From: a virus
Taxonomy: Duplodnaviria; Heunggongvirae; Uroviricota; Caudoviricetes
Virus record (IMG/VR): IMGVR_UViG_2529292888_000015
Reading direction: 5' to 3' (one strand)
Length of the DNA: 19,550 bases
The notes below the pieces were generated by a model. That model saw nothing but the letters and a program-made list of their open reading frames with translations. It had not been told where the DNA came from and did not search any database. A program made the translations under genes and the position numbers. Shown here one piece after another: positions 1-18,524 of the stretch (its first letter is position 1; each line of letters opens with the position of its first letter).

Positions 1-52
1 ATGCCATTTGCTCGTTATTTCTGCATTTTCATAAACGTTGGTTTGGGAGAAG
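1..52. repeat. Left inverted repeat of the invertible segment (contains the presumed invertase crossover site)
   Basis: Perfect 52-nt reverse-complement match to 1883..1934; both alternative fibre ORFs begin inside a repeat and so share the first ~17 codons (MPFARYFCIFINVGLGE). Confidence 0.8.
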
Positions 53-1512: not shown

Positions 1513-1523
1513 CCTGAATAAAA

Positions 1524-1937: not shown

Positions 1938-1963
1938 TCCTGCTTTTGTCAGGGAGATCTACC

Positions 1964-2518: not shown

Positions 2519-2575
2519 AACCGTAGCACGTCGTATGCAAGATCGTGCTGCGGTTTATGCTTACCACTTGAAGAT

Positions 2576-3445
<870 letters not shown>

Positions 3446-4916: not shown

Positions 4917-5400
4917 TCATTGTTCTTGCCCCCTTATTTCCAGACAGGGGGGGTATCTTAAGTTAACGTTACCCGCTGACGTCGATATTCTCGCGGAGAG
5001 CGATAACCCAACGCACTGTGCGGATGGTTTTCATTGTAATGTTCGATCGCCACTGCAAGATTATGCAATGCCGTTCTTACATTCGGTTTCGGCATGAACG
5101 CGATGTAGTCTTCCTTCATCGTTTTCACGAACCTTTCTGCAATTCCATTACTCTGAGGACTGCTGATTGCCGTTGTGCAGGGCTCCAGATTCAACTCTCT
5201 GGCGAACTGCCGTGTTTCATGCGCTCTATACGCTGAACCGTTATCTGTCAGCCACTGGATGGACTGTTCCGGTACTTTATCGCCAAAGCGTTTTTCTATC
5301 GCTCCTAACATGACATCCTGCACTGTCGCTTTATCGTAACCTCCCGTGCTTGCGGCCCAGTCTATGGCTTCACGATCGCAACAGTCCAGGGCGATTCATC
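4917..5400 (-). mobile_element. IS2-like (IS3 family) insertion sequence remnant: right terminal repeat plus the 3' part of the transposase gene
   Basis: 4920..4945 (ttgcccccttatttccagaca) resembles the IS2 terminal inverted repeat as recalled from memory; adjacent ORF encodes only the C-terminal DDE-domain portion of an IS3-family transposase. Upper boundary is approximate. Confidence 0.6.
4958..5323 (-). pseudogene. Truncated IS3-family (IS2 OrfB-like) transposase, C-terminal fragment only
   Basis: 121-aa ORF with [21 protein letters not shown]...[20 protein letters not shown]...[12 protein letters not shown], the C-terminal rve/DDE region; the ~180 N-terminal residues and orfA are absent. 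Confidence 0.7.
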
Positions 5401-5670
5401 TGGGCCAATCCTTGCTCATAACAGGCATTCACTTCAGTCATGGCAGAAAGGTATGCATGCTGGAGAAGTCGTGAAAGAAAAGAAGACTGCTGCGCCGTTT
5501 GTCGTCACGTTTATCTTCATTGGCTATGCAAGTCGTAATACAAGGTGGGACAAAACTGAGACACATAAGGCCTCGCAATGGCTTGCAAGGCTTTACATGT
5601 TTTGATGTGGTGGGACGTGTGAGCGCAGTGTTGATGGGGTAATGCTTTGAATTAGAAGCGGATTCTTATA

Positions 5671-5716
5671 ATTCGTAATGCGAAGGTCGTAGGTTCGACT
5701 CCTATTATCGGCACCA
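5671..5716 (+). other. 3' fragment (46 nt) of a tRNA-Thr(CGU) gene; left att site of the P4-like element
   Basis: attcgtaatgcgaaggtcgtaggttcgactcctattatcggcacca matches the anticodon loop to CCA end of enterobacterial tRNA-Thr (thrW-like), recalled from memory; the 5' half is missing. Integrase gene begins 163 bp downstream. Confidence 0.75.
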
Positions 5717-5878
5717 TCTCAACTTCCTCAAACGTCCGTATTAGTCCATAAAATCTCTGATTTATAACATTTTTTATTCTTTTAAGTCCATAGTAGTCCG
5801 TAACCATCCAGTAGAATCCGGTACTGAATGTGTATAGGATTGTGTATATGTTCCTGTTCGGTCTGGATTCCTATACAC

Positions 5879-7060
5879 ATGCCTTTAAACGATATGCAGA
5901 TTCGCCGCGCTAAGCCTGAAGCTAAAGCCTATACATTTGGAGATGGGCTAGGGTTGTCATTACTTATAGAACCTAATGGAAGCAAGAGTTGGCGGTTCCG
6001 CTATCGCTATGCCGGCAAACCCAAAATGATCTCGCTTGGTGTTTACCCAACGATCACCCTTGCCGATGCTCGTTCCCGTCGTGATGAAGCTCGAAAACTT
6101 GTGGCAGAAGGAAAGAACCCTAGTGAGGTTCGAAAAGAGCAAAAGCTAGCTATGCAAACAGAGTCAGAGAACGCCTTCGAAAAGATAGCCAGAGAGTGGC
6201 ATCAACTTAAATCTGCTAAATGGTCGGCGGGATATGCATCAGACATCATGGAAGCGTTTAAGAACGACATTTTTCCTTATGTCGGAACAAGGCCTGTGGG
6301 AGAGATTAAACCGCTAGAGCTGCTGAACGTTCTGCGTAAAATTGAGAAACGTGGTGCGTTGGAGAAAATGCGCAAAGTGCGGCAGCGTTGCTCCGAAGTG
6401 TTTCGCTACGCAATTGCAACGGGTAGGGCGGAGTACAATCCTGCGGCTGATCTCTCCAGCGCTCTCGAAGTACACCAATCCAATCATTTCCCATTCCTAA
6501 AAGCTGATGAGATACCTGATTTTCTACGTGCCTTAGAGGGTTACTCCGGGAGTAAGCTTGTCCAGATAGCCACGAAATTACTGATGATTACGGGTGTGAG
6601 AACCATCGAATTACGCGCGGCATTATGGCAAGAATTTGATCTGGATAACGCTATTTGGGAAATTCCTGCTGAAAGGATGAAAATGCGTAGGCCACATCTT
6701 GTGCCCTTATCATCTCAAGCGGTAGATTTACTCAATGAACTCAAGATCATGACAGGGAACTATCGTTATGTTTTTCCAGGGCGGAACGATCCGAATAGGC
6801 CAATGAGCGAAGCGAGTATAAATCAAGCCATTAAGCGTATTGGGTATGGAGGAAAAGTCACTGGACATGGTTTTCGTCATACCCTTTCTACAATCCTGCA
6901 TGAGCAAGGTTTTGAGAGTGCTTGGATTGAAATCCAGTTGGCTCATGTAGATAAAAATTCTATTAGGGGGACTTATAACCATGCTCAATATTTTAGTGGA
7001 AGGAAGTCTATGATGGACTGGTACAGTAATTTGATATTTGAAAGACTAAAAAGGAGTTAA
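5879..7060 (+). CDS. int: P4-type tyrosine integrase
   Basis: N-terminus MPLNDMQIRRAKPEAKAYTFGDGLGLSLLIEPNGSKSWRFRYRYAGK is the typical P4-integrase arm-binding start; catalytic HGFRHTLST (HxxR) and C-terminal RGTYNHAQY tyrosine. Start set at ATG 5879 rather than the track's 5828. Confidence 0.92.
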   Translation: MPLNDMQIRRAKPEAKAYTFGDGLGLSLLIEPNGSKSWRFRYRYAGKPKMISLGVYPTITLADARSRRDEARKLVAEGKNPSEVRKEQKLAMQTESENAFEKIAREWHQLKSAKWSAGYASDIMEAFKNDIFPYVGTRPVGEIKPLELLNVLRKIEKRGALEKMRKVRQRCSEVFRYAIATGRAEYNPAADLSSALEVHQSNHFPFLKADEIPDFLRALEGYSGSKLVQIATKLLMITGVRTIELRAALWQEFDLDNAIWEIPAERMKMRRPHLVPLSSQAVDLLNELKIMTGNYRYVFPGRNDPNRPMSEASINQAIKRIGYGGKVTGHGFRHTLSTILHEQGFESAWIEIQLAHVDKNSIRGTYNHAQYFSGRKSMMDWYSNLIFERLKRS

Positions 7061-7063
7061 TTT

Positions 7064-7480
7064 GTGTCTCAACCACTTTCGGAAATATTGACATGGGATG
7101 ATGAACAATGGGAGGTATTTGTCCATGATTGGCTTATTGTCTGTAAATCAGATGATTACCCGTGGAGCGAACGTTTGGGAGGAGCTGGAGATAAAGGTAG
7201 AGACGTTGTTGGATATAAATCGGATCCTAACGTAGAAGGTTATTCTTGGGATAATTATCAATGCAAACTGTACAAAAAAAGTTTAGGGTTCTCTGATGTT
7301 GTAGTTGAGTTTGGAAAACTTATCTATTTTACTCTGAATGGTGATTATCCCATCCCTCAGAAGTACTTTTTTGTGGCACCCTATGATTTATCTACTACAT
7401 TTTCTAATTTATTGAAAAATAAAAACGAGCTTAAAAAAGCAGTCCTTGATTCATGGGATTCAGCAATTTCAAAAAAATAA
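7064..7480 (+). CDS. Mrr-like PD-(D/E)xK restriction-endonuclease catalytic domain protein; probable N-terminal part of a frameshifted effector gene (LmuA-like)
   Basis: GTG start with AAAAAGGAG RBS overlapping the int stop. GDKGRDVVGY ... DNYQCKLYKK ... KYFFVAPYDLSTTF aligns with the Mrr_cat motif order (GDGGIDG ... VQAKR ... GVFITTSGFT). ORF ends at a TAA immediately after an A7 run. Confidence 0.6.
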   Translation: MSQPLSEILTWDDEQWEVFVHDWLIVCKSDDYPWSERLGGAGDKGRDVVGYKSDPNVEGYSWDNYQCKLYKKSLGFSDVVVEFGKLIYFTLNGDYPIPQKYFFVAPYDLSTTFSNLLKNKNELKKAVLDSWDSAISKK

Positions 7481-8070
7481 CTAAAAAGATTGATATTCCA
7501 TTAGATGATGAAATAAAAAAATATATTGAGGATTTTGATTTTAGTATTTTTTACTCTCTACCCTTATCATTGATTTTAAATGATATTGCAAATACACACC
7601 TTTATTTTAAGTACTTTAACGAGCTGTATGTCGTGAGAATCCCTCCAAATGAAATTCCAACATACAATTCAAAAAAAGAGTCTGTATATGTTAATGCACT
7701 GCTTCAAGCCTATTCAGAGCATGGAAATAAAACTTATAGTTCTTTCTTAGAGCTTGATGATCCATACAGACGACACTTTAATAATAGTAGAAATGATTTT
7801 TATTTTGCATCTTCGCTTGAGGTTTTTGTCCGCGAAGTATTTAAAGATGATGTATTCAAAGCATTGAAATGTTACATTTCATCTTCAATTGAACCCGTCT
7901 TTTATGAAGACCATAATTATGCATTTATTAGGTGTAATGCAGTCTTGAAGCAGGCTGTTCTGACACCAATTGCACATTCAGTACTATCAAAAATATGTGA
8001 AGCAAATGATAAAAAAGGAATATGCCATCATTTGGTTAATGATGGTGAAGTAATTTGGACGGTGAGATAA
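7453..8070 (+). CDS. Hypothetical protein; probable C-terminal part of the same effector gene, in a different frame
   Basis: Overlaps the previous ORF by 28 nt; one extra A in the 7471..7477 run would fuse the two into a ~335-aa protein. Stop overlaps the next start (TAATG at 8068..8072). Very AT-rich. Confidence 0.55.
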   Translation: MGFSNFKKITKKIDIPLDDEIKKYIEDFDFSIFYSLPLSLILNDIANTHLYFKYFNELYVVRIPPNEIPTYNSKKESVYVNALLQAYSEHGNKTYSSFLELDDPYRRHFNNSRNDFYFASSLEVFVREVFKDDVFKALKCYISSSIEPVFYEDHNYAFIRCNAVLKQAVLTPIAHSVLSKICEANDKKGICHHLVNDGEVIWTVR

Positions 8071-8528
8071 TGGTTAGAATTTATAATTCAAGTTTAGAAG
8101 TGGCATGTCGAATGGCGAAAGTGCTCGTCGCTATTTATCCTTCTTCATTAAGCCTTGAACGGCTTATTTGTTTTGATTTTATTTTAGTAAATCTTAAGGA
8201 TTTTTTACCTGAAGAGATTAGTCTTCATCCTCCAATACCCCGTAGAGATGCTCAGTTAGCCCTAAAACGAGAGATTGTTTTAGAATCATTGGCTTTGTTG
8301 CAAGGCTATGAACTAGCCTCAAAAATTTATACACATCGTGGTTTTGTATATAAAGCTTCTGAAAAAACATATGCATTTACAAATTCTCTACATAATGAAT
8401 ATGTTGCGCAGATGGAGCATAATATAAATTTGGTGGTTAAGTTATATAGTGATATTCCTGATGAGCAGTTGCAATCAATTATAAAAAATAAAATTGGCAA
8501 ATATGATATGGAATTTAATTATGAATGA
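8070..8528 (+). CDS. Small predicted alpha-helical protein (~152 aa), middle gene of the cargo operon (LmuC/DdmB-like position)
   Basis: ATG at 8070 coupled to the upstream stop; stop TGA at 8526..8528 overlaps the downstream ATG at 8521 (ATGAATGA). No recognisable catalytic motif. Confidence 0.6.
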   Translation: MVRIYNSSLEVACRMAKVLVAIYPSSLSLERLICFDFILVNLKDFLPEEISLHPPIPRRDAQLALKREIVLESLALLQGYELASKIYTHRGFVYKASEKTYAFTNSLHNEYVAQMEHNINLVVKLYSDIPDEQLQSIIKNKIGKYDMEFNYE

Positions 8529-9153
8529 CAATTTTTTTACGTTCAGAAAAATAAAGGTAACCGGATTCAATAAATTAGATGCTATAATTGAATTTGGTTC
8601 TAAATTGACTATTTTATATGGTGGTTCTGACTCTGGAAAAACATACATATATTATTTGATTCGATATTTATTAGGGAGTGAAAAACTAAAAAATAAAGAT
8701 ATCGATCATGCTCAAGGTTATGATTTAGCCTATCTGGAATTTAATTTTCAAGGTAGGGTAATGACAATTGAGAGGTCTCTTCAGGATAGCGCCCATTACA
8801 GATTATATGATTCGAGCATTGAAAATGTTAGTGAAGCTAATCTGTTGATGGTTTTTTCCAAAAGTGCTTCGTCTAAAAAGAGTTTTTCATCATACTTTTA
8901 TGGTAGGTTGAATTTCAAAGAGGCTAAAGTAAGAACAAACTTAAGTAATACTCTTCATAAATTTAATCTTAATAATGTTTTTGAATTTTTTTGTATTGAT
9001 GAATTAAGAGTGTTAACTGAGAAGTCGTTAATTCTTTCTGATATTCCTAGCGAGGAGACAAAAAGAAAGTCTGAATTTAAATTCCTTTTAACTCAGAGAG
9101 ATGATACTAACTCCTTAGCAGAAAAACCAAATAAAAAAGCAAGATATTTTTAA
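8521..9153 (+). CDS. SMC/Rad50/RecF-like ABC ATPase, N-terminal head with Walker A; apparently terminated by an in-frame TAA
   Basis: FRKIKVTGFNKLDAIIEFGSKLTILYGGSDSGKTYIYYLIRYLLG is the SMC_N/AAA_23-type N-terminal strand plus Walker A (GGSDSGKT). The next ORF is in the same frame, separated only by TAA 9151..9153. Confidence 0.65.
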   Translation: MNDNFFTFRKIKVTGFNKLDAIIEFGSKLTILYGGSDSGKTYIYYLIRYLLGSEKLKNKDIDHAQGYDLAYLEFNFQGRVMTIERSLQDSAHYRLYDSSIENVSEANLLMVFSKSASSKKSFSSYFYGRLNFKEAKVRTNLSNTLHKFNLNNVFEFFCIDELRVLTEKSLILSDIPSEETKRKSEFKFLLTQRDDTNSLAEKPNKKARYF

Positions 9154-9183
9154 AAAAATCAAATTGCAAATATTTATGAGGAA

Positions 9184-9774
9184 TTGAAAGCGCAATTAAT
9201 TTATCCTGAATATGATCAAGTCATTGTTTCAAGAGAACTTGAGAAAGTAGAGCAAGATATTGAATCATCGAAAGATATATTGAAAGGTATTGTTGATGCA
9301 CTTGATGATAAGAAGCAATTATTAAAAGAGTTAAGTGATGAATTATATTCAATCAGTGACAGGGAAAAATACTTATCATTACTCATTGAAAGATTTAGTC
9401 TTCTTAAAGACCAATACTTTATAGATCTACAAAGAATAGATGTTGTATCACAGGCGAATTTCTATTTAAATAATTTTGCAGATATTTATTGTGAGTTCTG
9501 TAATACACCGCAAAAAAAAGAAAATGAAATATCATATGATGATTGTTTTTTGTCGTGTAATGCAGAAAAATTGAAAATCAAAAGCCAGCTGAAAGGATTA
9601 ATTGAATCAATCGGATCTAATGTTCGCGAACATGAATTAATTATGTTAAGAAAAAATGATGTTAATGAAATTTATCAATCAGAAAAAAGTGATTTTAAGA
9701 CGTTAGAAGATAAAAATATAAAACAATACATTCATCTCTTGAATCACTTTATGAATATAAAGACAATCTTTTAA
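9184..9774 (+). CDS. Coiled-coil segment with a central CxxC (CEFC), probable middle part of the same SMC-like ATPase
   Basis: Charged heptad-like sequence (ELEKVEQDIESSKDILKGIVDALDDKKQLLKELSDEL...); no in-frame ATG start (track uses TTG at 9184); same frame as 8521..9153. Confidence 0.5.
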   Translation: MKAQLIYPEYDQVIVSRELEKVEQDIESSKDILKGIVDALDDKKQLLKELSDELYSISDREKYLSLLIERFSLLKDQYFIDLQRIDVVSQANFYLNNFADIYCEFCNTPQKKENEISYDDCFLSCNAEKLKIKSQLKGLIESIGSNVREHELIMLRKNDVNEIYQSEKSDFKTLEDKNIKQYIHLLNHFMNIKTIF

Positions 9775-10340
9775 TGGATCACACAAAACATAGCATTCTA
9801 TCTTCATTACAAGATAAAGAAGATGATGTTGACGAACTTAAATACTCCGCCGAGGACTTTGACTCCTTAACAGTAGCTGATTTGTATGATATAGAAATAG
9901 CGATGCAAGACTTTTTGAATGATATAAATTTTGAAAATTCTAAAGATAACAAAGTGCGATTTGACGAAGATACATATGACTTTAATATCAATGGGAAACG
10001 CCGAGGAATGTTTGGTAAAGGTACCCGTGCAGTAATGCATGCTATATTTACCATTTGCTTTGCGGAATTTTTATCAAGAAAAGGGAATCCATTCATTGGA
10101 TTTGTTGTGCTTGATAGTCCATTAGTGACGCACTTTGATAAAGATAGAGGGGGTTCTCTATCGGATGTTAATAGCGTCAGTCTCAGTGATTCATTTTATC
10201 ACGCATTAATCAAAAGGGACTATAATTTCCAGATTGTAATTCTTGAGAATAAAGGTCCGACGTTCCAAATAAAAATTAATGATGCAAATAAAATCCATAA
10301 CTTAAATAAGAATGGAAGCTCTGGTTTTTATCCTGTTTAA
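9774..10340 (+). CDS. C-terminal head of an SMC-like ABC ATPase (signature-like and Walker B-like motifs, both non-canonical)
   Basis: GMFGKGTRAVMHAIFTICFAEFL ... FIGFVVLDSPL ... FQIVILEN occupy the positions of the signature, Walker B and H-loop of SMC-type heads but are degenerate (DS instead of DE). Start overlaps the upstream stop (TAATG); one extra A in the runs at 9712..9723 would fuse it to the preceding ORF. Confidence 0.55.
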   Translation: MDHTKHSILSSLQDKEDDVDELKYSAEDFDSLTVADLYDIEIAMQDFLNDINFENSKDNKVRFDEDTYDFNINGKRRGMFGKGTRAVMHAIFTICFAEFLSRKGNPFIGFVVLDSPLVTHFDKDRGGSLSDVNSVSLSDSFYHALIKRDYNFQIVILENKGPTFQIKINDANKIHNLNKNGSSGFYPV

Positions 10341-10370
10341 TACATTAAAAATATAACTGCTAATTGGGGT

Positions 10371-10396
10371 GCTCGAAATTATATTTCGTTTCGAGC
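10371..10396 (+). terminator. Hairpin downstream of the cargo operon (possible terminator, no clear U-tract)
   Basis: gctcgaaa (10371..10378) pairs with tttcgagc (10389..10396), beginning 31 bp after the stop at 10340. Confidence 0.3.
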
Positions 10397-10749
10397 GCTC
10401 AGTTCATTTCTAAATAATTTGCAAAATTATTTTGGGTACTTTCGCCTCTACACTTCCTTCGGGTGGTTCCACAATAATGGATCTCACCGGCGTTTGATAT
10501 TTTATAATCTAACCCCTTAGCGCGCGCAGCCCCCCACGCCTGCTCGCTTCGCTTAACAGACTGGTTTTCATGCATTCCGCAAATCGTCTCAGAAGCCACC
10601 ACACAAGGGCTTTCGCGTCAAAAATGGTGCATGAGAATCATGCGTTTTCATGCGCTATAGACATGCACTCATGCGCTCTCAGGCCAGCCAGGGAAAAGGC
10701 GTAAAAAATCCCAGTACTGGACCGGGATTACGTGGGCTTTTTTTGCTAA

Positions 10750-11022
10750 TCAGACAGGAATTTGCTGACGGCTTGACAGCTTTGACGCGGAGCCATAGCG
10801 ATTGAGAGTTTGCTGTTGTTTTTCCGGCATTTGTGCTTTCTCTGATTCCTGTTCATTGCGCCGGGGCTTCATGATTATCGTATCCACACTTTCCAGTGCG
10901 GTAAATGTGTAGGAACATTCAAGATTCTGGCACTGATACCATGAGCGTTTAACCGATGGTGCTTCATAGGCGGAGGTTCTGGCGTGTGCCGTCGTACCGC
11001 ATTCGGGACATTTAAGTGCCAT
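10750..11022 (-). CDS. Ogr/Delta-family zinc-finger late-gene transcriptional activator
   Basis: MALKCPECGTTAHARTSAYEAPSVKRSWYQCQNLECSYTFTALESV follows the Ogr pattern C..C..AHARTS...QC.N..CS.TF..ESV; GGAG RBS inside the end of the upstream gene. Confidence 0.85.
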   Translation of the reverse strand: MALKCPECGTTAHARTSAYEAPSVKRSWYQCQNLECSYTFTALESVDTIIMKPRRNEQESEKAQMPEKQQQTLNRYGSASKLSSRQQIPV

Positions 11023-11027
11023 TAATA

Positions 11028-11579
11028 TTACTCCTGCATGCCGTTAATGTAATCCAGACGTTGCTGAAAGCGCAGTTGTTGTGCAGGGGTGTAAGAGCTC
11101 TGGCAATCACGAACCATCATGGGGTCAGGCATCACACCGGATTCATCCAGAATCATACGATAATCCCCGGCAATTTCAGGCGGTGTTATTGCCAGCTGGC
11201 GAACCAGAGCATTGCGTAATATACGGGACGCAACGTCAACCCCTCCGCGCCCCTTCAGGAACGGAGCCAGTGCAGATGTCAGGGCTGCTCCATTCGCCTG
11301 CATAAAATTGCTGAGAGCGTCTTCTGTGCAGGCCTCCATCAGTTGATGCTGCGAGTAAATGCATTCGCGCGCAGCACAGTTAATTTGCCATTTCAGCACA
11401 TCCAGATGTTCCCGCTGTAATTCGAGCTGTCGAGCATAATCTGCTGGTTTTTCCATGGCAGTGAGGAGTGATTCTATCTGTTGTTCAACGGCTTTTCGGC
11501 TCTCACTATGTCCAGCCCACAGAATACGGGCATTTCTAAAACTGATAAGCGCTTGGTCTGGAGTGACTCGGGCCATCAT
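11028..11579 (-). CDS. psu: P4 Psu-like protein (polarity suppression / capsid decoration), assignment tentative
   Basis: 183 aa, close to P4 Psu size; sits in the late operon directly upstream of the Ogr/Delta gene and is coupled to the preceding gene (ATGA overlap at 11576..11579). Similarity to Psu is from imperfect memory. Confidence 0.5.
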   Translation of the reverse strand: MMARVTPDQALISFRNARILWAGHSESRKAVEQQIESLLTAMEKPADYARQLELQREHLDVLKWQINCAARECIYSQHQLMEACTEDALSNFMQANGAALTSALAPFLKGRGGVDVASRILRNALVRQLAITPPEIAGDYRMILDESGVMPDPMMVRDCQSSYTPAQQLRFQQRLDYINGMQE

Positions 11580-12328
11580 ACTGCTTTCTCCTTCTCAGCA
11601 CGTTCCTGACGAACCTTCATTTTATGCATAGCTGCTGGAGAGAGTTTATTACTGAAATCCAGACGGGCCGCATAATCCGGGGCAACTCCCGCCAGTTTAA
11701 ACACGGGGTCCTGTTCGGGCATCGCATCGTTAGTCAGAGCCGGTCTGGTGATATGTTTATGAATAAAATCTTTCAGCAGTGTGTCCGGGTCATTAACTGA
11801 ATGCACCACACCGACAACTGCGCTGGCTTCCCTGCCCATTGTTGATTTGAGCAGGCTTAGTGTCTGGATTAGTGCTTTTCCATGCGACTGCATAAAATCT
11901 TCCCAGATTTGTTTTGCGCGAATACCCACAAGGGTGTCGTGCGCGTGGATATACTTTCCGGCTAATTCCGCAGCCTCCTGCGGCAAAAGTGCATTTTCGC
12001 TTTCCTGAGCCGCCAGCAGCTCATCAAAATCCTCAAGCGTTTCTCGTCCCAGCGCAATTTCCGTGCGCAGTTTTTTCATTTCCTTTGAGACTACGCCCTG
12101 ACTTTCACGAAATAGCGTGCGCCACTCCTCATTCAGGGCGTTCGTCGTGGCTTCCATTTCAGCGCGGCGCTGGCGGATTGTCGCAATATTATCCGCTGCC
12201 GCTTTTTGCTGACGACGTGCTTCAAGCCATGCAGATTTGGTGGCATTCACTTTCTCAAGCGCCTGTTGCGTCGAAACAGGGATAGAAATTTCAACGATCG
12301 GGTTATTGTTCTGTTCTGGGATTGTCAT
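11576..12328 (-). CDS. First gene of the P4-like late operon; Sid-like (capsid size determination) by size and position
   Basis: 250-aa predicted helical protein, first gene of the leftward operon, divergent from the alpA/primase operon. No motif-level confirmation. Confidence 0.4.
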   Translation of the reverse strand: MTIPEQNNNPIVEISIPVSTQQALEKVNATKSAWLEARRQQKAAADNIATIRQRRAEMEATTNALNEEWRTLFRESQGVVSKEMKKLRTEIALGRETLEDFDELLAAQESENALLPQEAAELAGKYIHAHDTLVGIRAKQIWEDFMQSHGKALIQTLSLLKSTMGREASAVVGVVHSVNDPDTLLKDFIHKHITRPALTNDAMPEQDPVFKLAGVAPDYAARLDFSNKLSPAAMHKMKVRQERAEKEKAV

Positions 12329-12398
12329 GTCAGCACCTAGTGGTTTGTCGTGGTGTCAATTGTGCTGTGATGCATACAAAGCTGCCATTGAACGCCAT

Positions 12399-12416
12399 TG
12401 TGCGAGCGACAAGACA
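12399..12416 (-). promoter_or_regulatory. Candidate Ogr/Delta-responsive late-promoter element (TGT-N12-ACA) upstream of the late operon
   Basis: tgt gcgagcgacaag aca; centre lies ~80 bp upstream of the 12328 start codon, compatible with a -55 activator site and a ~25-nt leader. Confidence 0.3.
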
Positions 12417-12495
12417 AAGACTGAACCGCCCCGGACCTCTTTTGGCTAGCCAGAAAAGGCCTCGTTTAACTAAGGCTGTTTCAGACTTACCTTAA

Positions 12496-12710
12496 CTATT
12501 CACTACTATTCACTTAGGTAAAAAAAATAGGTAATACAGAAGGTTATAAGGTGAAGGGTTGGCATGGCAGTATTCATCGACTGTTCATAACTGTTCACAT
12601 GGGAATAAAATTATTTATGGTATTTTTTCATAATGGGTGGTTTTTTTATTCCTCGTAGCTATTTGTTTTTTGCTCCTCACCACTATTCACCCTTATTCAG
12701 GAGTATTCAA
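12496..12710. repeat. Iteron-like array: eight YTRTTCAY octamers in three 10-bp-phased clusters with AT-rich spacers (candidate ori/crr-type alpha-binding region)
   Basis: ctattcac at 12496 and 12506; gtattcat 12570, ctgttcat 12581, ctgttcac 12591; ctattcac 12683, ttattcag 12693, gtattcaa 12703. P4 ori and crr are known to carry TGTTCACC repeats bound by alpha. Confidence 0.45.
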
Positions 12711-13261
12711 CAGGCACATAAATAGACTGCATGTTTTTGCCGGGGAATAACATTTTCGCCTCTGGCCATGGTGTTGCATTTCATACTGATTTTTATAAAA
12801 CTAGATCTGTCCGGTTCTTTATGGATTCATTCGGATATATTTTACGATTTAAGGTGATGTTATTTAATATCAAGGTTTTTATGCAGGCCCAATGTTTATA
12901 AGTTGGATGCGATTCAAAAATATGCCCGGAAATTGGGGCCTGCAATGCAAGGCCTCGTGTAGAAGTTGTACTGCCTTGCTGTATTGGCGGTGGGGTTAGC
13001 ACTATCAGGTGCAATGACCCATAGGATAGTAAACCCTGGGTGAATGGTAGTTCCTATTAATGCTCCTGTATTTATAGTCCGCAGGCATGGTATTTATTAT
13101 GTCATTTTATATGGTTTAATCGGGCTTTAAATTCCATAAAATCAATATGTGACGCTAAATAAAAAATGCGTGCGCAGGTGGTTTATATACACATAATAAG
13201 GAACTACCTGAACCCGGATAAATTCATCCGGACTGTTGTGGAAATTAAAGAGGGTAGATAA

Positions 13262-13522
13262 ATGCGTAATATTTCTGTGTCTGCGCCAGCTCCTGCTGCG
13301 CCATTATTTCCTGTATCGAACCATCATGAGCGATTTTTACGCCTGCCTGAGGTGATGCACTTATGCGGGTTGTCCCGTTCGACCGTTTACGACCTGATCA
13401 GCCGCGATGCGTTTCCGAAGCAGATCCCGCTTGGCGGTAAAAATGTCGCCTGGGCACAGTCTGAGGTCAGCGCATGGATGGCGGACCGCATCAGCGCCCG
13501 TGGGCGGGGATGTGATGCATGA
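13262..13522 (+). CDS. alpA: AlpA / Vis-family phage transcriptional regulator (MerR-like HTH, excisionase-like)
   Basis: [50 protein letters not shown] is the AlpA signature; the true start may be downstream of the annotated ATG. Confidence 0.8.
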
Positions 13523-13881
13523 TGATACCTGCATACATTAAATACCTTTATTCTGGCTTGCTTACTGTCGTCATTTCCAGGTATAGTTTTTCCGCTGTCG
13601 CAAAATCGGCAGCCGGAATTGGCGTTCCGTATAACTTATTGGCGACAATTGACGCCCCTTGCGTCTTTTTTTACGTCGTAGCTCAGGCACAACCATTTTC
13701 AGGGCTGTGGTGTTTATGCTTACACCATGGTTCTATCGAGATAATGGTAGTCCGGGCGGGGCAGCCTTCGGGCTGGCCGGTTTCCAATAAGGCCGGTTAC
13801 GCCAACCCCGTTCGGGCTGCCACCAGTGAAATTGGCGTTTCCGGTGGTAGCAATAACCGCTACTTATTGGAGGCTGCCATC

Positions 13882-14076
13882 ATGGCTACAATCCTCACCC
13901 CGTCACACCCGCAATATGTCTTTGTGTTTGCCGCAATCCGCCGTGCTGACACTCACCCCCGCATCTGTATGCTTCGCACTGTCTCCTGCGATGAGCATTC
14001 CGCGCGCCGTTTGCTAGTCCGAGATTATGTACTCTCCCTTTCTGCACGGCTGCCTGCCGGGGAGGTGACGCTATGA
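13882..14076 (+). CDS. Small hypothetical protein (64 aa), first of three translationally coupled small ORFs upstream of the primase
   Basis: ATG at 13882 with GGAGG 8 nt upstream; stop overlaps the next ATG (ATGA at 14073..14076). The track's longer 13519 start gives an implausible N-terminal extension. Confidence 0.4.
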
Positions 14077-14294
14077 ACCAGTTTGAGATTTCCTACGACG
14101 ATGTTGTAAGGCTGAAACATTTACGCAATGTGGGTGAGTATGTAACTGGCATGGCAGCCCTGCAGGACTGTTATGAAAAGCCAGCAGGTGCCCAATGCGA
14201 ACAACTGGTTTCCCTCATTTATCTGATGACAGAGCAACTGGATGGAGTGGTGCAACGCTGCCATGACGACCTGATGAATGCGGAGGTGGCCTGA
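14073..14294 (+). CDS. Small hypothetical protein (73 aa), P4-like early operon
   Basis: Coupled at both ends by overlapping stop/start codons (ATGA at 14073, TGATG at 14292..14296); GGAGG RBS for the next gene lies within its end. Confidence 0.55.
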
Positions 14295-14539
14295 TGATAT
14301 GCTGTGAATCTCTTCTGGCACTTCGTGCCGCTCTGTATCGCCGTGCCATAGCCCGCGAGCTGGAAGGGTTCTATCTGCGCCAGCATGGGCAGCAAAGAGG
14401 GCTGGAAATTGCCTGCGCGTTGCTTTCGGATCTGATGGAGTCGGGGCCGCTTAAAGCCTGTCCGGTTCTCTCACTGCTCGGAATGACGGTCATGGATGAA
14501 CTTTGTTCCCGTCACCTCAACAAACCAGCGCTGCACTAA
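14294..14539 (+). CDS. Small hypothetical protein (81 aa), P4-like early operon
   Basis: ATG 14294 preceded by GGAGGTGG; stop at 14537..14539 lies within the primase RBS region. Confidence 0.55.
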
Positions 14540-14552
14540 GGAGGGCCGCACA

Positions 14553-16886
14553 ATGTCAGGAATGAAAGTTAGCCAGGCTGAGAAAGCAGCTCGGGGTCAC
14601 TGGTCAAGAATTTTACCTGCGCTGGGCGTAAATGTACTGAAAAATCGGCACCAGCCCTGCCCGGTCTGTGCCGGGAAAGACCGCTTTCGATTTGATGACC
14701 AGGAAGGGCGGGGAACGTGGTTCTGTAACCAGTGCGGGGCAGGTGATGGCCTGGCGCTTGTAAGTAAAGTACTGGATGTAGGCATTAGTGAAGCGGCAGA
14801 CAGAATAAACGGCATTATCGGAAACCTGCTGCCAGTATCTCAGGGAATGCTTGAATCTGGTTCTCCTGAAAAAGAGGACGGGAGAAAAGCTGCAGCAGTG
14901 CTGGCTGCCCGTTTGTTTGATAAGTCCCGCCAGACCACTGGCAATGCCTATCTGACGAGTAAAGGGTTTCCTGCACTGCCTTGCCGGGAATTAACCGCTA
15001 TGCATAAAGTCGGTGGTGTGGCATTTCGCGCGGGAGATCTTGTCGTTCCATTGTATGCAGATGGAGAGCTGGTAAATCTGCAGTTAATCAACGCTAATGG
15101 GGGCAAATGCTTCCTTAAAGGCGGTCAGGTTAAGAATGCCTTTTACCTGGTTGAAGGTACTGCCAAAGCAGCCAAACGGCTCTGGATAGCGGAAGGATAT
15201 GCCACCGCACTTACTATCAACTATCTGACTGGCGATGCTGTCATGGTGGCCTTTTCGTCCGTCAATTTCCTTTCCCTGGCGAGCATTGCCTGCAGTGAGT
15301 ACCCAACGCACCAGATAATTATTGCTGCTGACCGCGATCTCAACGGTGCGGGGCAAACAAGGGGCGCAGCTGTTACCGGGGCCTGCAATTGCACAATGGC
15401 GCTCCCGCCTGTGTTTGGTGACTGGAACGATGCATTCACGCAAAACGGCGAAGAAGCCACCCGGCATGCAATTCATGAAGTAATAAAACCAGCTGTTGCC
15501 AGCCCCTTCGACACAATGAGCGAAGCTGAATTTACCGCGCTGAGCGTCAGCGAAAAAGCGCAGAGGGTAGTGGATCACTATAAAAATTCACTGGCAGTAG
15601 ACCCGAACGGGCAGCTCCTTTCACGCTATGAGGCGGGGGCCTGGAAAGTTATCTATTACGCCGATTTTGCCCGTGATGTCGCTGCGCTGTTTCAGCGCCT
15701 CGACGCACCTTTTTCATCCGCGAAAATTGCGTCTCTCGTGGAAACCCTCAAACTGATCGTTCCGCAACAGCAGAATCCGGCGCGGCAACTTATCGGATTT
15801 CGCAACGGTGTGCTCGATACCCGGACAGGATTGTTCAGCCCGCACGATAAGAAGCACTGGTTACGTACGCTGTGCGAGGTGGATTACACGCAGCCCGTTG
15901 ACGGTGAGTCACTGGAAACCCATGCCCCGGCATTCTGGCGCTGGCTGGATCGTGCCGCAGGTTTTAATCCTGAAAAACGGGACATTATTCTGGCTGCATT
16001 GTTTATGGTGCTGGCTAACCGTTATGACTGGCAGCTGTTTCTGGAGGTCACTGGCCCTGGCGGAAGTGGAAAGAGTATTCTTGCTGAAATAGCAACCATG
16101 CTGGCGGGTGAAGATAACGCGACCTCGGCAACCATTGAAATGCTTGAGTCGCCAAGAGAACGAGCTGCGTTAATAGGTTTTTCACTGATTCGACTTCCCG
16201 ACCAGGAAAAGTGGAGCGGTGACGGGGCCGGACTAAAAGCCATCACTGGCGGCGATGCGGTATCCGTTGATCCCAAATATCAGAACGCCTATTCAACCCA
16301 CATCCCGGCGGTCATCCTGGCTGTGAACAATAATCCGATGCGCTTCACTGATCGTAGTGGTGGAGTTTCACGCCGAAGGGTGATCCTGCATTTCCCCGAC
16401 CAGATAGCCCCGGAGGAACGCGATACCCAGCTCAAAGAGAAAATTGCCAGTGAGCTAGCGGTGATTGTTCGCCAGCTTATGCAGCGTTTCAGCGACCCAA
16501 TGAGTGCCAGGACATTGCTTCAGTCACAGCAGAACTCCGATGAAGCGCTCACCATCAAACGTGATGCTGATTCAGCTTTTGATTTTTGCGGCTACCTTGA
16601 GGTCCTACCTGACACCACGGGCATGTTTATGGGGAACGCTAATATTGTTCCACGTCAGCCTCGAACTTACCTCTACCATGCCTATCTGGTCTACATGGAG
16701 GCTAACGGCTATAAAAATACGCTCAGTCTGACCATGTTTGGCAAGGGGCTACCGTTAATGCTCAAGGAATATGGGCTGCAGTATGAGAAACGACGGACCA
16801 ATCAAGGAATGCAGACTAATCTGGCCCTAAGAGAGGAAAGCAATGCTGACTGGTTGCCAAAATGCGATGAGTTTGCAGCGAAATAA
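14553..16886 (+). CDS. P4 alpha-type bifunctional DNA primase/helicase (zinc-binding primase, TOPRIM, D5-like P-loop NTPase)
   Basis: AAGGAGGG RBS at 14538..14545; zinc motif CPVCAGKDRFRF...CNQCGAGDG; TOPRIM acidic motifs (IAEGYATA, IIIAADRDLNG); Walker A GPGGSGKS and Walker B-like region. Start at 14553 rather than the track's 14496. Confidence 0.9.
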   Translation: MSGMKVSQAEKAARGHWSRILPALGVNVLKNRHQPCPVCAGKDRFRFDDQEGRGTWFCNQCGAGDGLALVSKVLDVGISEAADRINGIIGNLLPVSQGMLESGSPEKEDGRKAAAVLAARLFDKSRQTTGNAYLTSKGFPALPCRELTAMHKVGGVAFRAGDLVVPLYADGELVNLQLINANGGKCFLKGGQVKNAFYLVEGTAKAAKRLWIAEGYATALTINYLTGDAVMVAFSSVNFLSLASIACSEYPTHQIIIAADRDLNGAGQTRGAAVTGACNCTMALPPVFGDWNDAFTQNGEEATRHAIHEVIKPAVASPFDTMSEAEFTALSVSEKAQRVVDHYKNSLAVDPNGQLLSRYEAGAWKVIYYADFARDVAALFQRLDAPFSSAKIASLVETLKLIVPQQQNPARQLIGFRNGVLDTRTGLFSPHDKKHWLRTLCEVDYTQPVDGESLETHAPAFWRWLDRAAGFNPEKRDIILAALFMVLANRYDWQLFLEVTGPGGSGKSILAEIATMLAGEDNATSATIEMLESPRERAALIGFSLIRLPDQEKWSGDGAGLKAITGGDAVSVDPKYQNAYSTHIPAVILAVNNNPMRFTDRSGGVSRRRVILHFPDQIAPEERDTQLKEKIASELAVIVRQLMQRFSDPMSARTLLQSQQNSDEALTIKRDADSAFDFCGYLEVLPDTTGMFMGNANIVPRQPRTYLYHAYLVYMEANGYKNTLSLTMFGKGLPLMLKEYGLQYEKRRTNQGMQTNLALREESNADWLPKCDEFAAK

Positions 16887-16892
16887 CTGACC

Positions 16893-16915
16893 TAAGACCG
16901 GCTGTGCCGGTCTTA
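16893..16915 (+). terminator. Strong GC-rich hairpin directly after the primase stop (probable terminator, no U-tract)
   Basis: taagaccggc tgt gccggtctta: perfect 10-bp stem with 3-nt loop beginning 7 nt after the TAA at 16884..16886. Confidence 0.45.
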
Positions 16916-17018
16916 AATCCGCTACAGGAAATTATCTCAAAATATATATCGATAAAATTTAAAAGTTATATGCTAAGGCGTCAGCGGAAAATGCATCTAA
17001 TTCATTGTTAGATGATGT

Positions 17019-17975
17019 TTATTTTTGAATTGATTTAAACATCCCATCGAGTTGTAATTTATTTATGTCGGTTTTCTTTATGGCTTTAATTAAGTTTTCA
17101 ATAACTTCCAAAGAAAAAATTACATCTTTCTTTTCAATTCTAACCCCCCCGTGGTGGCTGCAAGCATTAAGGATGTCCTTTGTAATTTCAACATCATTTT
17201 TCATTAATGGTTCATAGTCCAGAGCCTCAATAACAGAAACTAAACTACCTAGCATTTGCTCTTGGTATTGAACGTTGTTTAAATGCATTATACGAATATT
17301 AACAAGCATGAGAATATATTCTAAATATCTCCTGGCAGTATTTCCTTTCTCTTGTAAAGAATCACGATCATATTCCTCAATACTCATGACTTCATTATGT
17401 AAAGAGGCTATTTTGTGCTCTGCTAATGAAATATTTATCGCATCCATGAGGTTTCGTGAGAAGCCTGTAGATGTAACATGACCATTTGCGGGCCTTGTTA
17501 AAATACATGTAGTATAGCAATTTATATTTGGGGTCTGGATTGTCTCATTTACTCTTTTAACCGTTCTATAAACGTCTACCATATAAGAACCTGAGTTTTC
17601 AAATGAACATGAAGAGCATTTTGTATTATATATTCTATTTAGAGATAACTGATTGTGATAGTATCCCTTTAAGAAAGCATATATAGTGTCATTAAACTCG
17701 ACAAACACAACGGACTCAATATATATATGGAATTTATCATTGGGGTGCCACTCTAATTCAAGTCTTCTTGTAGAGTCATCAAAGGAAAAGTTTGAAATAA
17801 AATCCCAGTTACCTAAATCTATAAAATCAACGATATTTCTACCTGCACCATGGATATTTTTATTTATTAAAGTTGTGATTGAGTTTTTTATAATGTCCCA
17901 ATCATGAATTTCATGATCGAATTTATTATTGATGGTTTCTTTTATTTGATTGGAAAAGTTTGAATAACTAGTCAC
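17019..17975 (-). CDS. Hypothetical protein (318 aa), AT-rich cargo gene between primase and attR; function unknown
   Basis: Long uninterrupted ORF in a very AT-rich block flanked by AT-rich non-coding DNA (16920..17018 and 17976..18505); no motif recognisable by eye. Confidence 0.6.
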   Translation of the reverse strand: MTSYSNFSNQIKETINNKFDHEIHDWDIIKNSITTLINKNIHGAGRNIVDFIDLGNWDFISNFSFDDSTRRLELEWHPNDKFHIYIESVVFVEFNDTIYAFLKGYYHNQLSLNRIYNTKCSSCSFENSGSYMVDVYRTVKRVNETIQTPNINCYTTCILTRPANGHVTSTGFSRNLMDAINISLAEHKIASLHNEVMSIEEYDRDSLQEKGNTARRYLEYILMLVNIRIMHLNNVQYQEQMLGSLVSVIEALDYEPLMKNDVEITKDILNACSHHGGVRIEKKDVIFSLEVIENLIKAIKKTDINKLQLDGMFKSIQK

Positions 17976-18505
17976 TTGTTAGCCTCAAAATTAATAATGA
18001 GTATTAAAATTTAATTGATATTGTCTATAAAATGTAGCGATGCAATTTTATTGCAACGAAATGATTTTTACAACATACCATTATCGCTAAACAAAATCGC
18101 ACCCATCAAATCAACTTACGTTACAATCACTACAAAGCGATTGCATTTAAATTCAAAACAGTTTTCTGTTGGGCGCATTTTTTGTTGTACTGGACTAAAG
18201 AGAAAAAATGGGGTAAGGAACAAATACCTTCCGTGCTCAAAAATTAGGTTTTTATGCACTTATTAATCAGTCAAGGTGAACAGTAAAGTGTTCACTTCTT
18301 ATCAATCGTTAATTTCATATCTTTTTGAATATTAATGAAAAAAAACACAATGAGTAGTATGAACAGTTTTCCCCCAAAAAAAGTTTTTTCTGCCTTGAGA
18401 ATGCGCGGAAAGCGAACGCCTTCACCAATGTGTATAGGGGTGTGTGTAGTTTAAATCTTCTATTTTAATTTATGTATTAAAATCATTGTGTTGGTGGCGA
18501 TTATT

Positions 18506-18524
18506 GGTTCCTATTATCGCACCA
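18506..18524 (+). repeat. Degenerate direct repeat of the tRNA-Thr 3' end; candidate attR of the P4-like element
   Basis: ggttcctattatcgcacca versus ggttcgactcctattatcggcacca at 5692..5716: shared ggttc, cctattatcg and cacca in order, with two small gaps. Confidence 0.45.

Follow-up and report, generated by a model that had tools for sequence, protein, structure and literature searches.

A tRNA-Thr gene fragment at the left end of a P4-like satellite is the junction of two mobile elements in tandem at thrW

Features of the locus

The window, i.e. the whole 19,550-nt stretch of DNA analysed here, holds a part of Sp1, a 10.6-kb remnant of a ~40-kb lambda-like phage, and, to its right, Sp2, a 12.8-kb P4-like satellite. 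The features are as follows.

4921..5390, minus strand: IS3-family (ISEc48-like) transposase remnant, cargo near the Sp1-type right end (Pfam rve/rve_3, ORF 4958-5323)
5391..5670, plus strand: right (P) arm of the Sp1-type attachment site
5671..5716, plus strand: displaced 46-nt 3' fragment of thrW, attR of Sp1 (exact identity to the thrW 3' end; junctions listed below)
5700-5716: attL core of Sp2, the last 17 nt of the 46-nt fragment
5717..5880, plus strand: P' arm of Sp2 with candidate arm-type integrase sites (repeat motifs; putative function)
5879..7060, plus strand: P4-type tyrosine integrase IntS of Sp2, apparently intact (Pfam Arm-DNA-bind_3, Phage_int_M, Phage_integrase)
7064..10340, plus strand: decayed Lamassu (ABC-3C) defence system, cargo in the int-psu hotspot (PADLOC; Pfam CTD6, MC2, AAA_23)
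10520..10558, minus strand: diverged cos-like region (GCAGGCGTGGGGGGCTGC, compared with GGCGAGGCGGGGAAAGCAC in P4)
10750..12328, minus strand: late operon with a sid-like gene (11576-12328), psu (11028-11579) and a single-domain ogr/delta gene (10750-11022)
12492..12700, plus strand: ori-like iterons made of ACTRTTCAC units (repeat family D1)
13262..13522, plus strand: AlpA/Vis-type regulator and excisionase (Pfam Phage_AlpA, 1.2e-19; PHROG 'excisionase and transcriptional regulator')
13594..13827, plus strand: immunity-region RNAs, an isrK-family element (13594-13671) and a C4/CI antisense RNA (13740-13827)
14073..16886, plus strand: replication block with a 73-aa protein, a DUF5375/cnr-like gene (14294-14539) and the alpha primase-helicase (14553-16886)
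17019..17975, minus strand: 318-aa ORF between alpha and attR, homologue of ECs_0304 ('hypothetical protein' in the Sakai record)
18430..18524, plus strand: P arm and attR of Sp2 (GTGTATAGG / GTGTGTAG repeats at 18430-18448; core copy TCCTATTATCG-CACCA)

Gene content of the satellite

The translated integrase carries the conserved motifs RTIELR, HGFRHT and ...RGTYNH, and in an alignment of 405 aa it has 38% identity to P4 Int (E 2e-98). In the Lamassu cargo, LmuA is split over two ORFs and LmuB over three, while LmuC is whole; the PADLOC matches to LmuA, LmuC and LmuB cover consecutive parts of the profiles, and the Sakai record lists the Lamassu ATPase as pseudogene ECs_0293. A search for the P2/P4 cos 19-mer with up to three mismatches gave no match. 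Local alignment of the P4 cos region with the minus strand of 10341-10750 scored 70, compared to 32.7 +/- 5.3 (maximum 51) for 200 shuffles, a deviation of ~7 sd.

The ogr/delta product (Pfam Ogr_Delta, 1e-16) is 41% identical to P4 Delta and, as a single 90-aa unit, matches both halves of that protein. The psu product (Pfam Psu, 4.8e-42) shares 31% identity with P4 Psu. The Sid-like protein, a member of the Psu family (Pfam Psu, 7e-10; phrog_6165, 5e-96), aligns with P4 Sid over 243 aa at 23% identity (E 8e-11), and we count it as the probable sid component.

The iteron core CTRTTCAC has four copies in 12496-12690, and its total of five was reached by none of 200 shuffles; segment 12492-12598 also aligns with the type-1 repeat region of the P4 ori, 9311-9418 (blastn, 72%, E 6e-8). 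The AlpA/Vis protein is 66% identical to P4 ORF88/Vis. Both immunity RNAs exceed the Rfam gathering score (RF01394, 71.9 bits; RF01695, 84 bits) and lie within an Ash/cI-ORF gene (13519-14076) whose ORF is 67% identical to the P4 'cI' ORF137. The alpha protein (Pfam Zn_Ribbon_Prim, Toprim_3, D5_N, Pox_D5) aligns with P4 alpha over 771 aa, or 99% of the length, at 72.6% identity, and the DUF5375/cnr-like gene has a 78-bp in-frame deletion relative to Sakai. For the 318-aa ORF there was no match in Pfam, PHROGs or PADLOC.

A P4-like satellite has been defined by seven core components, of which one or two may be absent (de Sousa et al. 2021, PMC8628076). Six of the seven are present in Sp2: integrase, psu, delta, sid, alpA/vis and alpha. 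The seventh, epsilon, which serves in helper derepression, was sought across the whole window with blastp and tblastn (E <= 0.01) and gave no match; an epsilon homologue has been placed in Sp13, a P2-like prophage, and a P2 ogr homologue has been noted in Sp2 (PMC2669165). With six components Sp2 is 'Type B' in the published scheme and still counts as a P4-like satellite (PMC8628076). Sp2 also keeps the gene order int ... psu/delta/sid ... alpA ... alpha that is conserved in such satellites, and att is placed between alpha and int; the one departure is a swap of psu and delta in the late operon. The Pfam genes, the CI RNA, the iterons and the P4-type order bear out the classification made in an earlier, sequence-only reading of this DNA.

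Copies of the thrW 3' end

Compared with thrW of Sakai, the E. coli gene for tRNA-Thr (CGU), positions 5671-5716 are identical to the last 46 nt (thrW nt 31-76), which agrees exactly with the tRNA-Thr 3' fragment proposed earlier for the left end. Its first base lies 1 nt before the anticodon loop. The right-hand copy, TCCTATTATCG-CACCA at 18509-18524, corresponds to the final 17 nt of thrW but for one absent G, which leaves 16 nt. A degenerate copy of ~19 nt at 18506..18524 had been described; the part from 18509 on is confirmed, but 18506-18508 match poorly. Within the window the 11-mer TCCTATTATCG has just two copies, one at 5700 and one at 18509, and 0/200 shuffles had any match. In 948 genomes thrW abuts the sequence that begins at window position 18525, so the right copy marks a genuine boundary. 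From 18525 onwards the DNA is chromosomal, with the downstream flank of thrW followed by yagP.

The two arms of the Sp2 attachment site have repeats in common. In the P' arm, GTGTATAGG is found at 5830 and 5842 and, inverted, at 5870, and AGTCCRTA occurs three times across 5743-5802. Of the five matches to GTGTRTAKR, a number reached by none of 200 shuffles, four are within ~160 bp of the two att cores. These repeats may act as arm-type sites for the integrase.

ARAGORN detected neither a tRNA nor a tmRNA gene in the window, and thus no tRNA at 5640-5716, where a tRNA finder had been suggested as a check. The statement that neither end of the satellite has an intact tRNA gene is true of the window, and the reason is where the window was cut.

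The same locus in E. coli O157:H7

Apart from the 78-bp deletion and the first 27 nt, the window has 99.97-100% identity to E. coli O157:H7 Sakai and EDL933. The annotation of the Sakai record runs from thrW through 'prophage Sp1, lambda-like phage' to 'prophage Sp2, P4-like phage', with borders that correspond to window positions 5699/5700 and 18508; Sp2 is described as a P4-like prophage of Sakai in the literature as well (PMC2669165; PMC8046923). The tandem Sp1-Sp2 arrangement at thrW is thus already known and annotated. We take Sp1 and Sp2 of Sakai to be CP-933H and CP-933I of EDL933.

In both genomes an intact thrW is located at the left end of Sp1, ~4.9 kb outside the window on the left; in Sakai the direct-repeat family (D3) places it 10,586 bp upstream of the 46-nt fragment. 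The 5' half of the gene, thought to be missing, is therefore present in both. For the window itself an intact upstream thrW is presumed from these near-identical genomes, because none of 5,426 complete genomes is its exact source. The 78-bp deletion was absent from every top match among complete genomes, and none of them had a match collinear with window positions 1-2600 from base 1.

Occupancy of thrW

The survey covered 5,426 complete E. coli genomes. The thrW site was empty in 948 of them. An Sp2-type satellite was located directly at thrW in 120, an Sp1-type right arm with the 46-nt fragment was joined directly to the chromosome in 342, and the tandem Sp1-Sp2 junction was found in 279. The junctions of the three simpler states are listed below.

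Empty site: thrW + tttaaatcaagtag
Sp2 only (O55:H7 DEC5A): thrW + tctcaacttcc ... TTCCTATTATCG-CACCA + tttaaatcaagtag
Sp1-type only (PapM-32-1): thrW + ttaaaatcaataag ... ggattcttata + 46 nt + tttaaatcaagtag

Added together, the two single insertions give the O157 tandem junctions base for base. The three direct repeats (thrW, 46 nt and 16 nt) have the same orientation, with the intact thrW seen in Sakai and EDL933, and each interval between them has an integrase gene, the intD pseudogene in Sp1 and intS in Sp2. Each member of the pair occurs alone at thrW in some genomes, and the empty site exists in others; in these island-free strains the junction lies inside thrW, as the interpretation of the fragment had required.

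Given these data, we consider it nearly certain that two independent integrative elements, Sp1 and Sp2, share the 3' end of thrW as their attachment site and occupy it in tandem. The 46-nt tRNA-Thr fragment is an ordinary junction of two mobile elements, the decayed Sp1 and the satellite Sp2, at thrW. Of the two origins first suggested for it, tandem islands at one att site turned out to be exactly right, as the junctions and the genomes with single occupancy show.

Order of arrival

Judging from the distribution of the elements, Sp2 was most likely the first resident, and the regenerated thrW later became the target of Sp1. In O55:H7 DEC5A, Sp2 is alone at thrW and 99.7-99.9% identical to the Sp2 of the window; the occurrence of Sp2 alone in O55:H7 relatives suggests that it arrived first. 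For the STEC O55:H7 strain 122262, homologues of Sp2, Sp3, Sp6, Sp8 and Sp14 are listed, and Sp1 is unlisted (PMC5708253). Sp2 is also alone in two typical-looking O157:H7 strains, 2571 and F6321; this could reflect loss of Sp1, so the Sp2-only state need not always be ancestral.

The opposite order, with an Sp1-type element entering the empty thrW and Sp2 then using the displaced 46-nt fragment (attR of Sp1) as a secondary attB, seems to us rather improbable, though several observations speak for it. The junction sequences fit it equally well, since Sp2 entering the displaced fragment after Sp1 yields an identical sequence, and both possible targets have the same sequence between the T-arm and a point at least 10 bp past CCA. 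The attR of a resident prophage has been used experimentally as attB, by Sp10 beside Rac (PMC2669165), and the Sp1-type right end occurs without Sp2 in the 342 genomes mentioned above. On the other hand, orthologous Sp2 (99.7-100%) is found directly at an intact thrW without Sp1 in the close outgroups O55:H7 DEC5A, 122262 and SF O157 493/89. Prior arrival of Sp1 would therefore require its repeated precise loss, with an integrase that is a pseudogene. Thus, the arrival of Sp2 ahead of Sp1 remains the order that we favour.

Deletion and composite-island explanations

The other origin suggested for the fragment was an IS-associated deletion that took the 5' half of a tRNA-Thr gene formerly present at the left end of the satellite. 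An IS3-family transposase remnant does lie 281 bp to the left of the fragment. It had been placed 270 bp away and described as IS2-like, a description that is roughly right at the family level: the Sakai record labels it 'ISEc48 Family: IS3 partial'. However, segment 5391-5670, the 'unrelated sequence' that stands in place of the tRNA 5' half, has, together with the remnant itself, a contiguous match of 99.4% identity in PapM-32-1, where this arm terminates an intact 39.6-kb prophage and adjoins the chromosome directly. The right-end cargo of that prophage, the IS remnant in the same place and the 46-nt fragment are all as in Sp1. The same arm directly precedes the fragment and the chromosomal flank in 342 genomes, in all of which the fragment begins at the same base; this start is the edge of a block of attP identity and not a deletion end point. 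With the conserved boundary, the status of the IS remnant as Sp1-type cargo and the intact thrW upstream in both matching records examined, a deletion is ruled out, and we assign it next to no probability.

That everything from thrW to 18524 is a single composite island, with the 46-nt and 16-nt copies as chance or relict similarity and not element ends, fits the constant company of the two parts in O157:H7, as seen in the 279 tandem genomes, and the failure of either to excise in Sakai, but has a negligible chance of being true: it is refuted by the hundreds of genomes in which one part occupies thrW alone with precise junctions, and it runs against the integrase in each part and the restriction of TCCTATTATCG to the two predicted ends.

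Proposed mechanism of integration

We propose that each element integrates via a tyrosine-recombinase crossover within the tRNA gene. Because each brings along a copy of the 3' end of the tRNA gene, an insertion would regenerate thrW on the left and displace the old 3' end to the right. The Sp1-type phage shares with thrW the sequence from the anticodon loop onward (46 nt and ~10 nt past the gene). Sp2 shares only the T-stem/acceptor end (17 nt), the same tRNA sublocation that P4 uses in leuX. From left to right, the order that results is intact thrW, Sp1, the 46-nt fragment, Sp2, the 16-nt fragment and the chromosome. The 46-nt fragment therefore serves both as attR of Sp1 and as attL of Sp2, and since the window starts within Sp1, the intact thrW is out of view.

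A diverged satellite in an O169:H41 strain also has a core copy that lacks the single G. Most simply, the missing G may be a trait of the satellite's own attP, which would put the Sp2 crossover 3' of the missing G, probably in GCACCAT.

The array now looks fixed in place, since the Sp1 integrase gene is a pseudogene and Sp2 did not circularise, replicate or become packaged in Sakai. In that strain no circular form of Sp1 or Sp2 was detected with or without mitomycin C, and circularisation, replication and packaging were all negative for Sp2 (PMC2669165).

Comparison with known systems

The Sakai Sp1/Sp2 locus is identical to that of the window in position, elements and borders. The window copy differs by the in-frame loss of 78 bp from the cnr-like DUF5375 gene, by two point differences, and by the odd arrangement of its first 27 nt, at a Pin-invertible segment.

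P4 (NC_001609, at leuX) and Sp2 have in common a gene set and its order, which runs int, cargo hotspot, cos or cos-like region, late operon, ori iterons, vis, CI RNA, cnr, alpha, att. In both the att core reaches the CCA end of the tRNA (GAGTCCGGCCTTCGGCACCA in P4, TCCTATTATCG(G)CACCA in Sp2), although the target is leuX for P4 and thrW for Sp2. Unlike P4, Sp2 is without epsilon, ORF151 and gop/beta/cII; its Delta is a single 90-aa protein of Ogr size encoded after psu, while P4 delta precedes psu; its cos-like region is diverged, and its hotspot holds a decayed Lamassu system.

CP4-6, a cryptic prophage of E. coli K-12, has thrW as its attachment gene, like Sp1 and Sp2. At its right end there is a displaced thrW 3' fragment of 49 nt (tRNA nt 28-76), followed by the same chromosomal flank before yagP. 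It is, however, a different element, 34 kb long with the integrase gene intF at the right end beside the fragment, and the sole occupant of thrW, compared to the tandem in O157:H7.

Tandem arrays at tRNA genes are routine, with 125 in the Islander survey (PMC4383910). As in Sp1-Sp2, every member of these arrays comes with a separate integrase and a separate displaced tRNA fragment, and a one-base deletion near the discriminator, as seen in the right copy of Sp2, is a recognised 'damaged fragment' class (PMC4383910). The Sp10/Rac tandem demonstrates that an attR can act as attB for a second element (PMC2669165). We see no essential difference between these arrays and the Sp1-Sp2 tandem.

Fragments of thrW in the window

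The 46 nt at 5671-5716 (ATTCGTAATGCGAAGGTCGTAGGTTCGACTCCTATTATCGGCACCA) were identical at 46 of 46 positions to the 3' end of the 76-nt thrW gene of Sakai, a tRNA-Thr(CGU), and started one base 5' of the anticodon loop. The right copy at 18509-18524 (TCCTATTATCG-CACCA) corresponded to the last 17 nt of thrW minus one G. Because of this one-nucleotide deletion, a gapless 17-mer search of the window with up to three mismatches missed the right copy; an 11-mer search found it. Chance similarity was rejected for the right copy, since the 11-mer TCCTATTATCG occurred at only two sites in the window, the left and right copies, and in none of 200 shuffles. The sequence-only reading, which had placed tRNA-Thr 3' fragments at both ends of the satellite, was thus borne out by the thrW comparison and the 11-mer search, with coordinates right to within three bases.

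ARAGORN, run as that reading had proposed, found no tRNA or tmRNA gene across the 19,550-base window. Both window ends are gene starts: a tail-fibre ORF opens with its ATG at base 1, and the minus-strand gene yagP has its ATG at base 19550; this cut therefore leaves the tRNA gene out of view. Within a tandem array, an internal junction is expected to show just such a tRNA 3' fragment without a neighbouring tRNA, and a lone fragment of this kind calls for a check further upstream before any deletion is assumed.

The tandem array at thrW

Positions 5000-6200 matched many E. coli O157:H7 chromosomes at 100% identity, and the whole window matched Sakai and EDL933 at 99.97-100%, save for a 78-bp deletion, two point differences and the first 27 nt. 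The Sakai record gives the order proA, intact thrW, 'prophage Sp1, lambda-like phage', 'prophage Sp2, P4-like phage' and yagP. In window coordinates, its Sp1/Sp2 border is at 5699/5700 and Sp2 ends at 18508, so that the annotated span opens with the left 17-nt copy and stops one base short of the right copy. Sakai has its intact thrW, which begins GCCGATATAGCTCAGTTGG, at a distance of 10,586 bp upstream from the 46-nt fragment and ~4.9 kb left of window base 1. Judging from these near-identical genomes, the window's own genome would also have an intact thrW upstream, and the left end of the array is expected to read thrW, then tttaaatcaataagttacac, then an integrase pseudogene.

Three synthetic junctions were searched against 5,426 complete E. 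coli genomes, with counts referring to one contiguous match.

Junctions at thrW: genomes counted, followed by the base-by-base reading
Empty site, proA-thrW followed by the sequence from window 18525: 948 genomes, up to 99.2% identity
thrW followed immediately by the integrase arm of Sp2: 120 genomes, including O55:H7 DEC5A (99.8%) and O157 493/89, 2571, F6321 and CEC13002 (100%)
Sp1 right arm, 46-nt fragment, then directly the chromosomal flank: 342 genomes
Tandem junction: 279 genomes
Empty junction: thrW + tttaaatcaagtag
Sp2-only junctions: thrW + tctcaacttcc ... attattgg TTCCTATTATCG-CACCA + tttaaatcaagtag
Sp1-type-only junctions: thrW + ttaaaatcaataag ... ggattcttata + 46 nt + tttaaatcaagtag
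O157 tandem: thrW + tttaaatcaataag ... ggattcttata + 46 nt + tctcaacttcc ... TTCCTATTATCG-CACCA + tttaaatcaagtag

All four occupancy states of thrW were found among sequenced E. coli, and the tandem junctions, read base by base, were the exact sum of the Sp1-type and Sp2 single insertions. Therefore, the 46-nt fragment is the attR of Sp1 and the attL of Sp2 together. The earlier suggestion of tandem islands at one att site was correct, on the Sakai annotation as well as on these junctions, and the comparison with island-free genomes that it called for gave the empty site in 948 of the 5,426. A single composite island was rejected, as Sp1-type and Sp2 elements each occur alone.

The other explanation put forward earlier was a deletion, associated with an IS2-like remnant 270 bp away, that removed the 5' half of the tRNA gene. 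A remnant is indeed present at 4921-5390, 281 bp from the 46-nt fragment; the family assigned was IS3. However, PapM-32-1 (NZ_CP049204.1, about 3729137-3768817) carries at thrW an apparently intact Sp1-type prophage of ~39.6 kb whose right end is that of the window: GIY-YIG gene, AraC regulator, IS remnant, 280-bp arm and 46-nt fragment. The IS remnant is therefore old cargo of that phage family, and with the same elements conserved at the end of an intact prophage the IS-mediated truncation was rejected. By sequence comparison, what had been read as 'unrelated sequence' left of the fragment is the att arm of an Sp1-type phage, and the fragment start is the edge of the attP identity block rather than a deletion end point.

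The PapM-32-1 prophage has an integrase adjoining thrW, a lambda/e14-like early region, terminase, portal and HK97-type capsid genes, a contractile tail, tail fibres and a Pin invertase with a Pin-invertible tail-fibre segment. It is a useful reference for the former state of Sp1, which in O157:H7 is a 10.6-kb remnant with int, O and P pseudogenes and a deletion that fuses P to a tail-fibre gene.

Order of arrival

The junction sequences are compatible with either order of Sp1 and Sp2. The distribution of the elements favors Sp2 as the first arrival, an order we consider fairly probable. An orthologous Sp2, 99.7-99.9% identical, is directly at intact thrW in O55:H7 DEC5A, and an O157 strain that ferments sorbitol, 493/89, shares this thrW-Sp2 junction. 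STEC O55:H7 122262 is reported to share Sp2, Sp3, Sp6, Sp8 and Sp14 with Sakai, with Sp1 unlisted (PMC5708253). Alternatively, Sp2 entered the displaced fragment of an already resident Sp1, for which Sp10 and Rac provide an experimental precedent (PMC2669165); the solitary Sp2 of DEC5A and 493/89 and the unlisted Sp1 of 122262 speak against it, in favor of Sp2 first.

Integration sites and the missing G

Upon integration into a tRNA gene, the gene is rebuilt from the attP copy and the original end is displaced; crossovers take place either in the anticodon loop or within the T-loop/acceptor region. Sp1-type and Sp2 elements are both found, each also alone, at the thrW 3' end, each with a tyrosine integrase adjoining its tRNA-proximal end, and the displaced 3' fragment is 46 nt long for Sp1-type elements versus 16-17 nt for Sp2. 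The Sp1-type elements would belong to the anticodon-loop class, as the identity block starts at the anticodon loop, and Sp2 would belong to the T-loop/acceptor class, like P4 (attP core GAGTCCGGCCTTCGGCACCA). Two integrases would then use two sublocations of one tRNA gene, the anticodon loop and the T-stem/acceptor end. Repeats of GTGTATAGG at 5830, 5842, 5870 and 18430 are candidate arm-type integrase sites, and the Sp2 attP junction would contain attattggTTCCTATTATCGCACCAtctcaacttcc.

The lack of one G in the right copy would most simply be a feature of the satellite attP. A diverged satellite with a different P arm, from an O169:H41 strain, lacks this G too. Provided that the missing G is no later decay, the crossover would be placed 3' of it, in GCACCAT, because attL has GG and attR one G. 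A small deletion 3 bp upstream of the discriminator marks a known class of 'damaged' fragments (PMC4383910). We regard it as unlikely that the one-base deletion of the distal copy (TATCG-CACCA), common to diverged thrW satellites, is a built-in P4-type attP feature rather than decay; such a feature would confine the crossover to the final 6-7 bp of the tRNA gene (GCACCAT) and leave a deliberately imperfect distal copy. If true, the imperfect copy could bias the att choice of later elements or excision and thus array build-up at thrW.

A further thrW tandem was observed in E. coli 64EVA (locus L007, 33133-33151), where a P4-like satellite is followed downstream by a second island with YfjI, DUF3987 and inovirus Gp2-type genes. 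Its middle att copy has GG, then tttaaatcaataagtta, resembling the P' arm of the Sp1-type phage.

Cargo genes and differences from reference genomes

The following features were observed in the two elements.

2576-3400, minus strand: Sp1 remnant, full-length match to the single-gene anti-phage system PD-T4-3 (PADLOC E 2e-140; Pfam LEM-3-like GIY-YIG)
4173-4916: AraC-family regulator after the PD-T4-3 gene; both are also in the intact PapM-32-1 prophage
7064-10340: int-psu hotspot of Sp2, a decaying Lamassu (ABC-3C) defence system with LmuA in two ORFs, LmuC whole and LmuB in three ORFs
14347/14348: 78-bp in-frame deletion in the DUF5375 gene, a homologue of the P4 copy-number control gene ORF106/cnr, with TGCC microhomology at the flanks
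17019-17975, minus strand: 318-aa ORF between alpha and attR, kept in Sakai, EDL933 and DEC5A

The Lamassu breaks differ in DEC5A (an internal stop in LmuC, LmuB in two pieces), which suggests that the system decayed independently in the two Sp2 copies. Two related thrW satellites (L007 and L008) have in its place an ATP-dependent nuclease and UvrD-type helicase pair, which looks Gabija-like. The decayed Lamassu and the PD-T4-3 gene are of minor interest for surveys of O157:H7 defence systems. The 78-bp deletion was in none of the 15 best-matching complete genomes, all of which had the 78 bp. The 318-aa ORF had no match in Pfam, PHROGs or PADLOC; its position is possibly a second cargo site of the satellite.

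At the left edge (1-52, and 1883-1937), the first 27 nt and a Pin crossover site (AAACGTTGGTTTGGGAGAAGG) join the 9-codon N-terminus of the pin-proximal yfdL-like gene to the tail-fibre C-terminal segment; the remainder of the invertible segment is unflipped, as in Sakai. This arrangement, B'-IR-X-IR-B, is unobtainable by simple inversion. Among complete genomes, 100% matches to window 1-700 were on the opposite strand only (the flipped state), and no collinear match of window 1-2600 from base 1 was found. It could reflect a real rearrangement, or else a chimeric assembly of a switching segment. Pin is probably active, because both segment orientations exist among O157 genomes.

Comparison with P4 and other known systems

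All the satellite genes named earlier, encoding a P4-type integrase, Ogr/Delta, Psu, a Sid-like protein (Psu family), AlpA and a primase-helicase, were confirmed by Pfam, which also matched an Ash/cI-ORF protein and DUF5375. The iterons were upheld as well: iteron-like CTRTTCAC units cluster at 12496-12690, and in alignments they correspond to the P4 origin's type-1 repeats. Rfam added two elements.

13594-13671: isrK-family element
13740-13827: C4/CI antisense RNA

Sp2 has six of the seven core components of the P4-like satellite definition ('Type B'), and its integrase retains the conserved motifs. Identity to the P4 homologues was 72.6% for Alpha, 67% for cI-ORF, 66% for Vis, 56% for Cnr/ORF106, 41% for Delta, 38% for Int, 31% for Psu and 23% for Sid; P4 epsilon, ORF151 and gop/beta/cII had no match in Sp2. 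The late genes are related to P4 at the protein level only, and distant blastn of the late region (10300-13300) against a phage collection gave no match. Delta of Sp2 is a single 90-aa protein of Ogr size encoded after psu, the psu/delta order being swapped relative to P4. The P2/P4 cohesive-end 19-mer had no exact or near-exact site, with noise only at six mismatches. A diverged cos-like stretch at 10520-10558 on the minus strand, well above shuffles in gapped local alignment only, differs from the 19-mer at about a third of positions. Together, the diverged cos, the single-unit Delta after psu and the absent epsilon suggest that this satellite lineage has adapted to some helper that is not P2 itself.

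A study of Sakai saw no circular form, replication or packaging of either Sp1 or Sp2, and argues that the P2-like prophage Sp13 may have ceased to help Sp2 (PMC2669165). Judged by the P4 comparison and this inactivity, the array has the look of a fixed relic.

Both elements, with their borders and tandem placement at thrW, are already known from the reference annotation and the literature; the EDL933 names are presumably CP-933H and CP-933I. The finding is ordinary and its weight beyond correct annotation is small; as a textbook case the locus is tidy, with two integrases at different sublocations of one tRNA gene and all four occupancy states on record. Arrays of this kind are frequent, one survey having counted 125 (PMC4383910), and CP4-6 of K-12 likewise ends with a thrW fragment, 49 nt long there.
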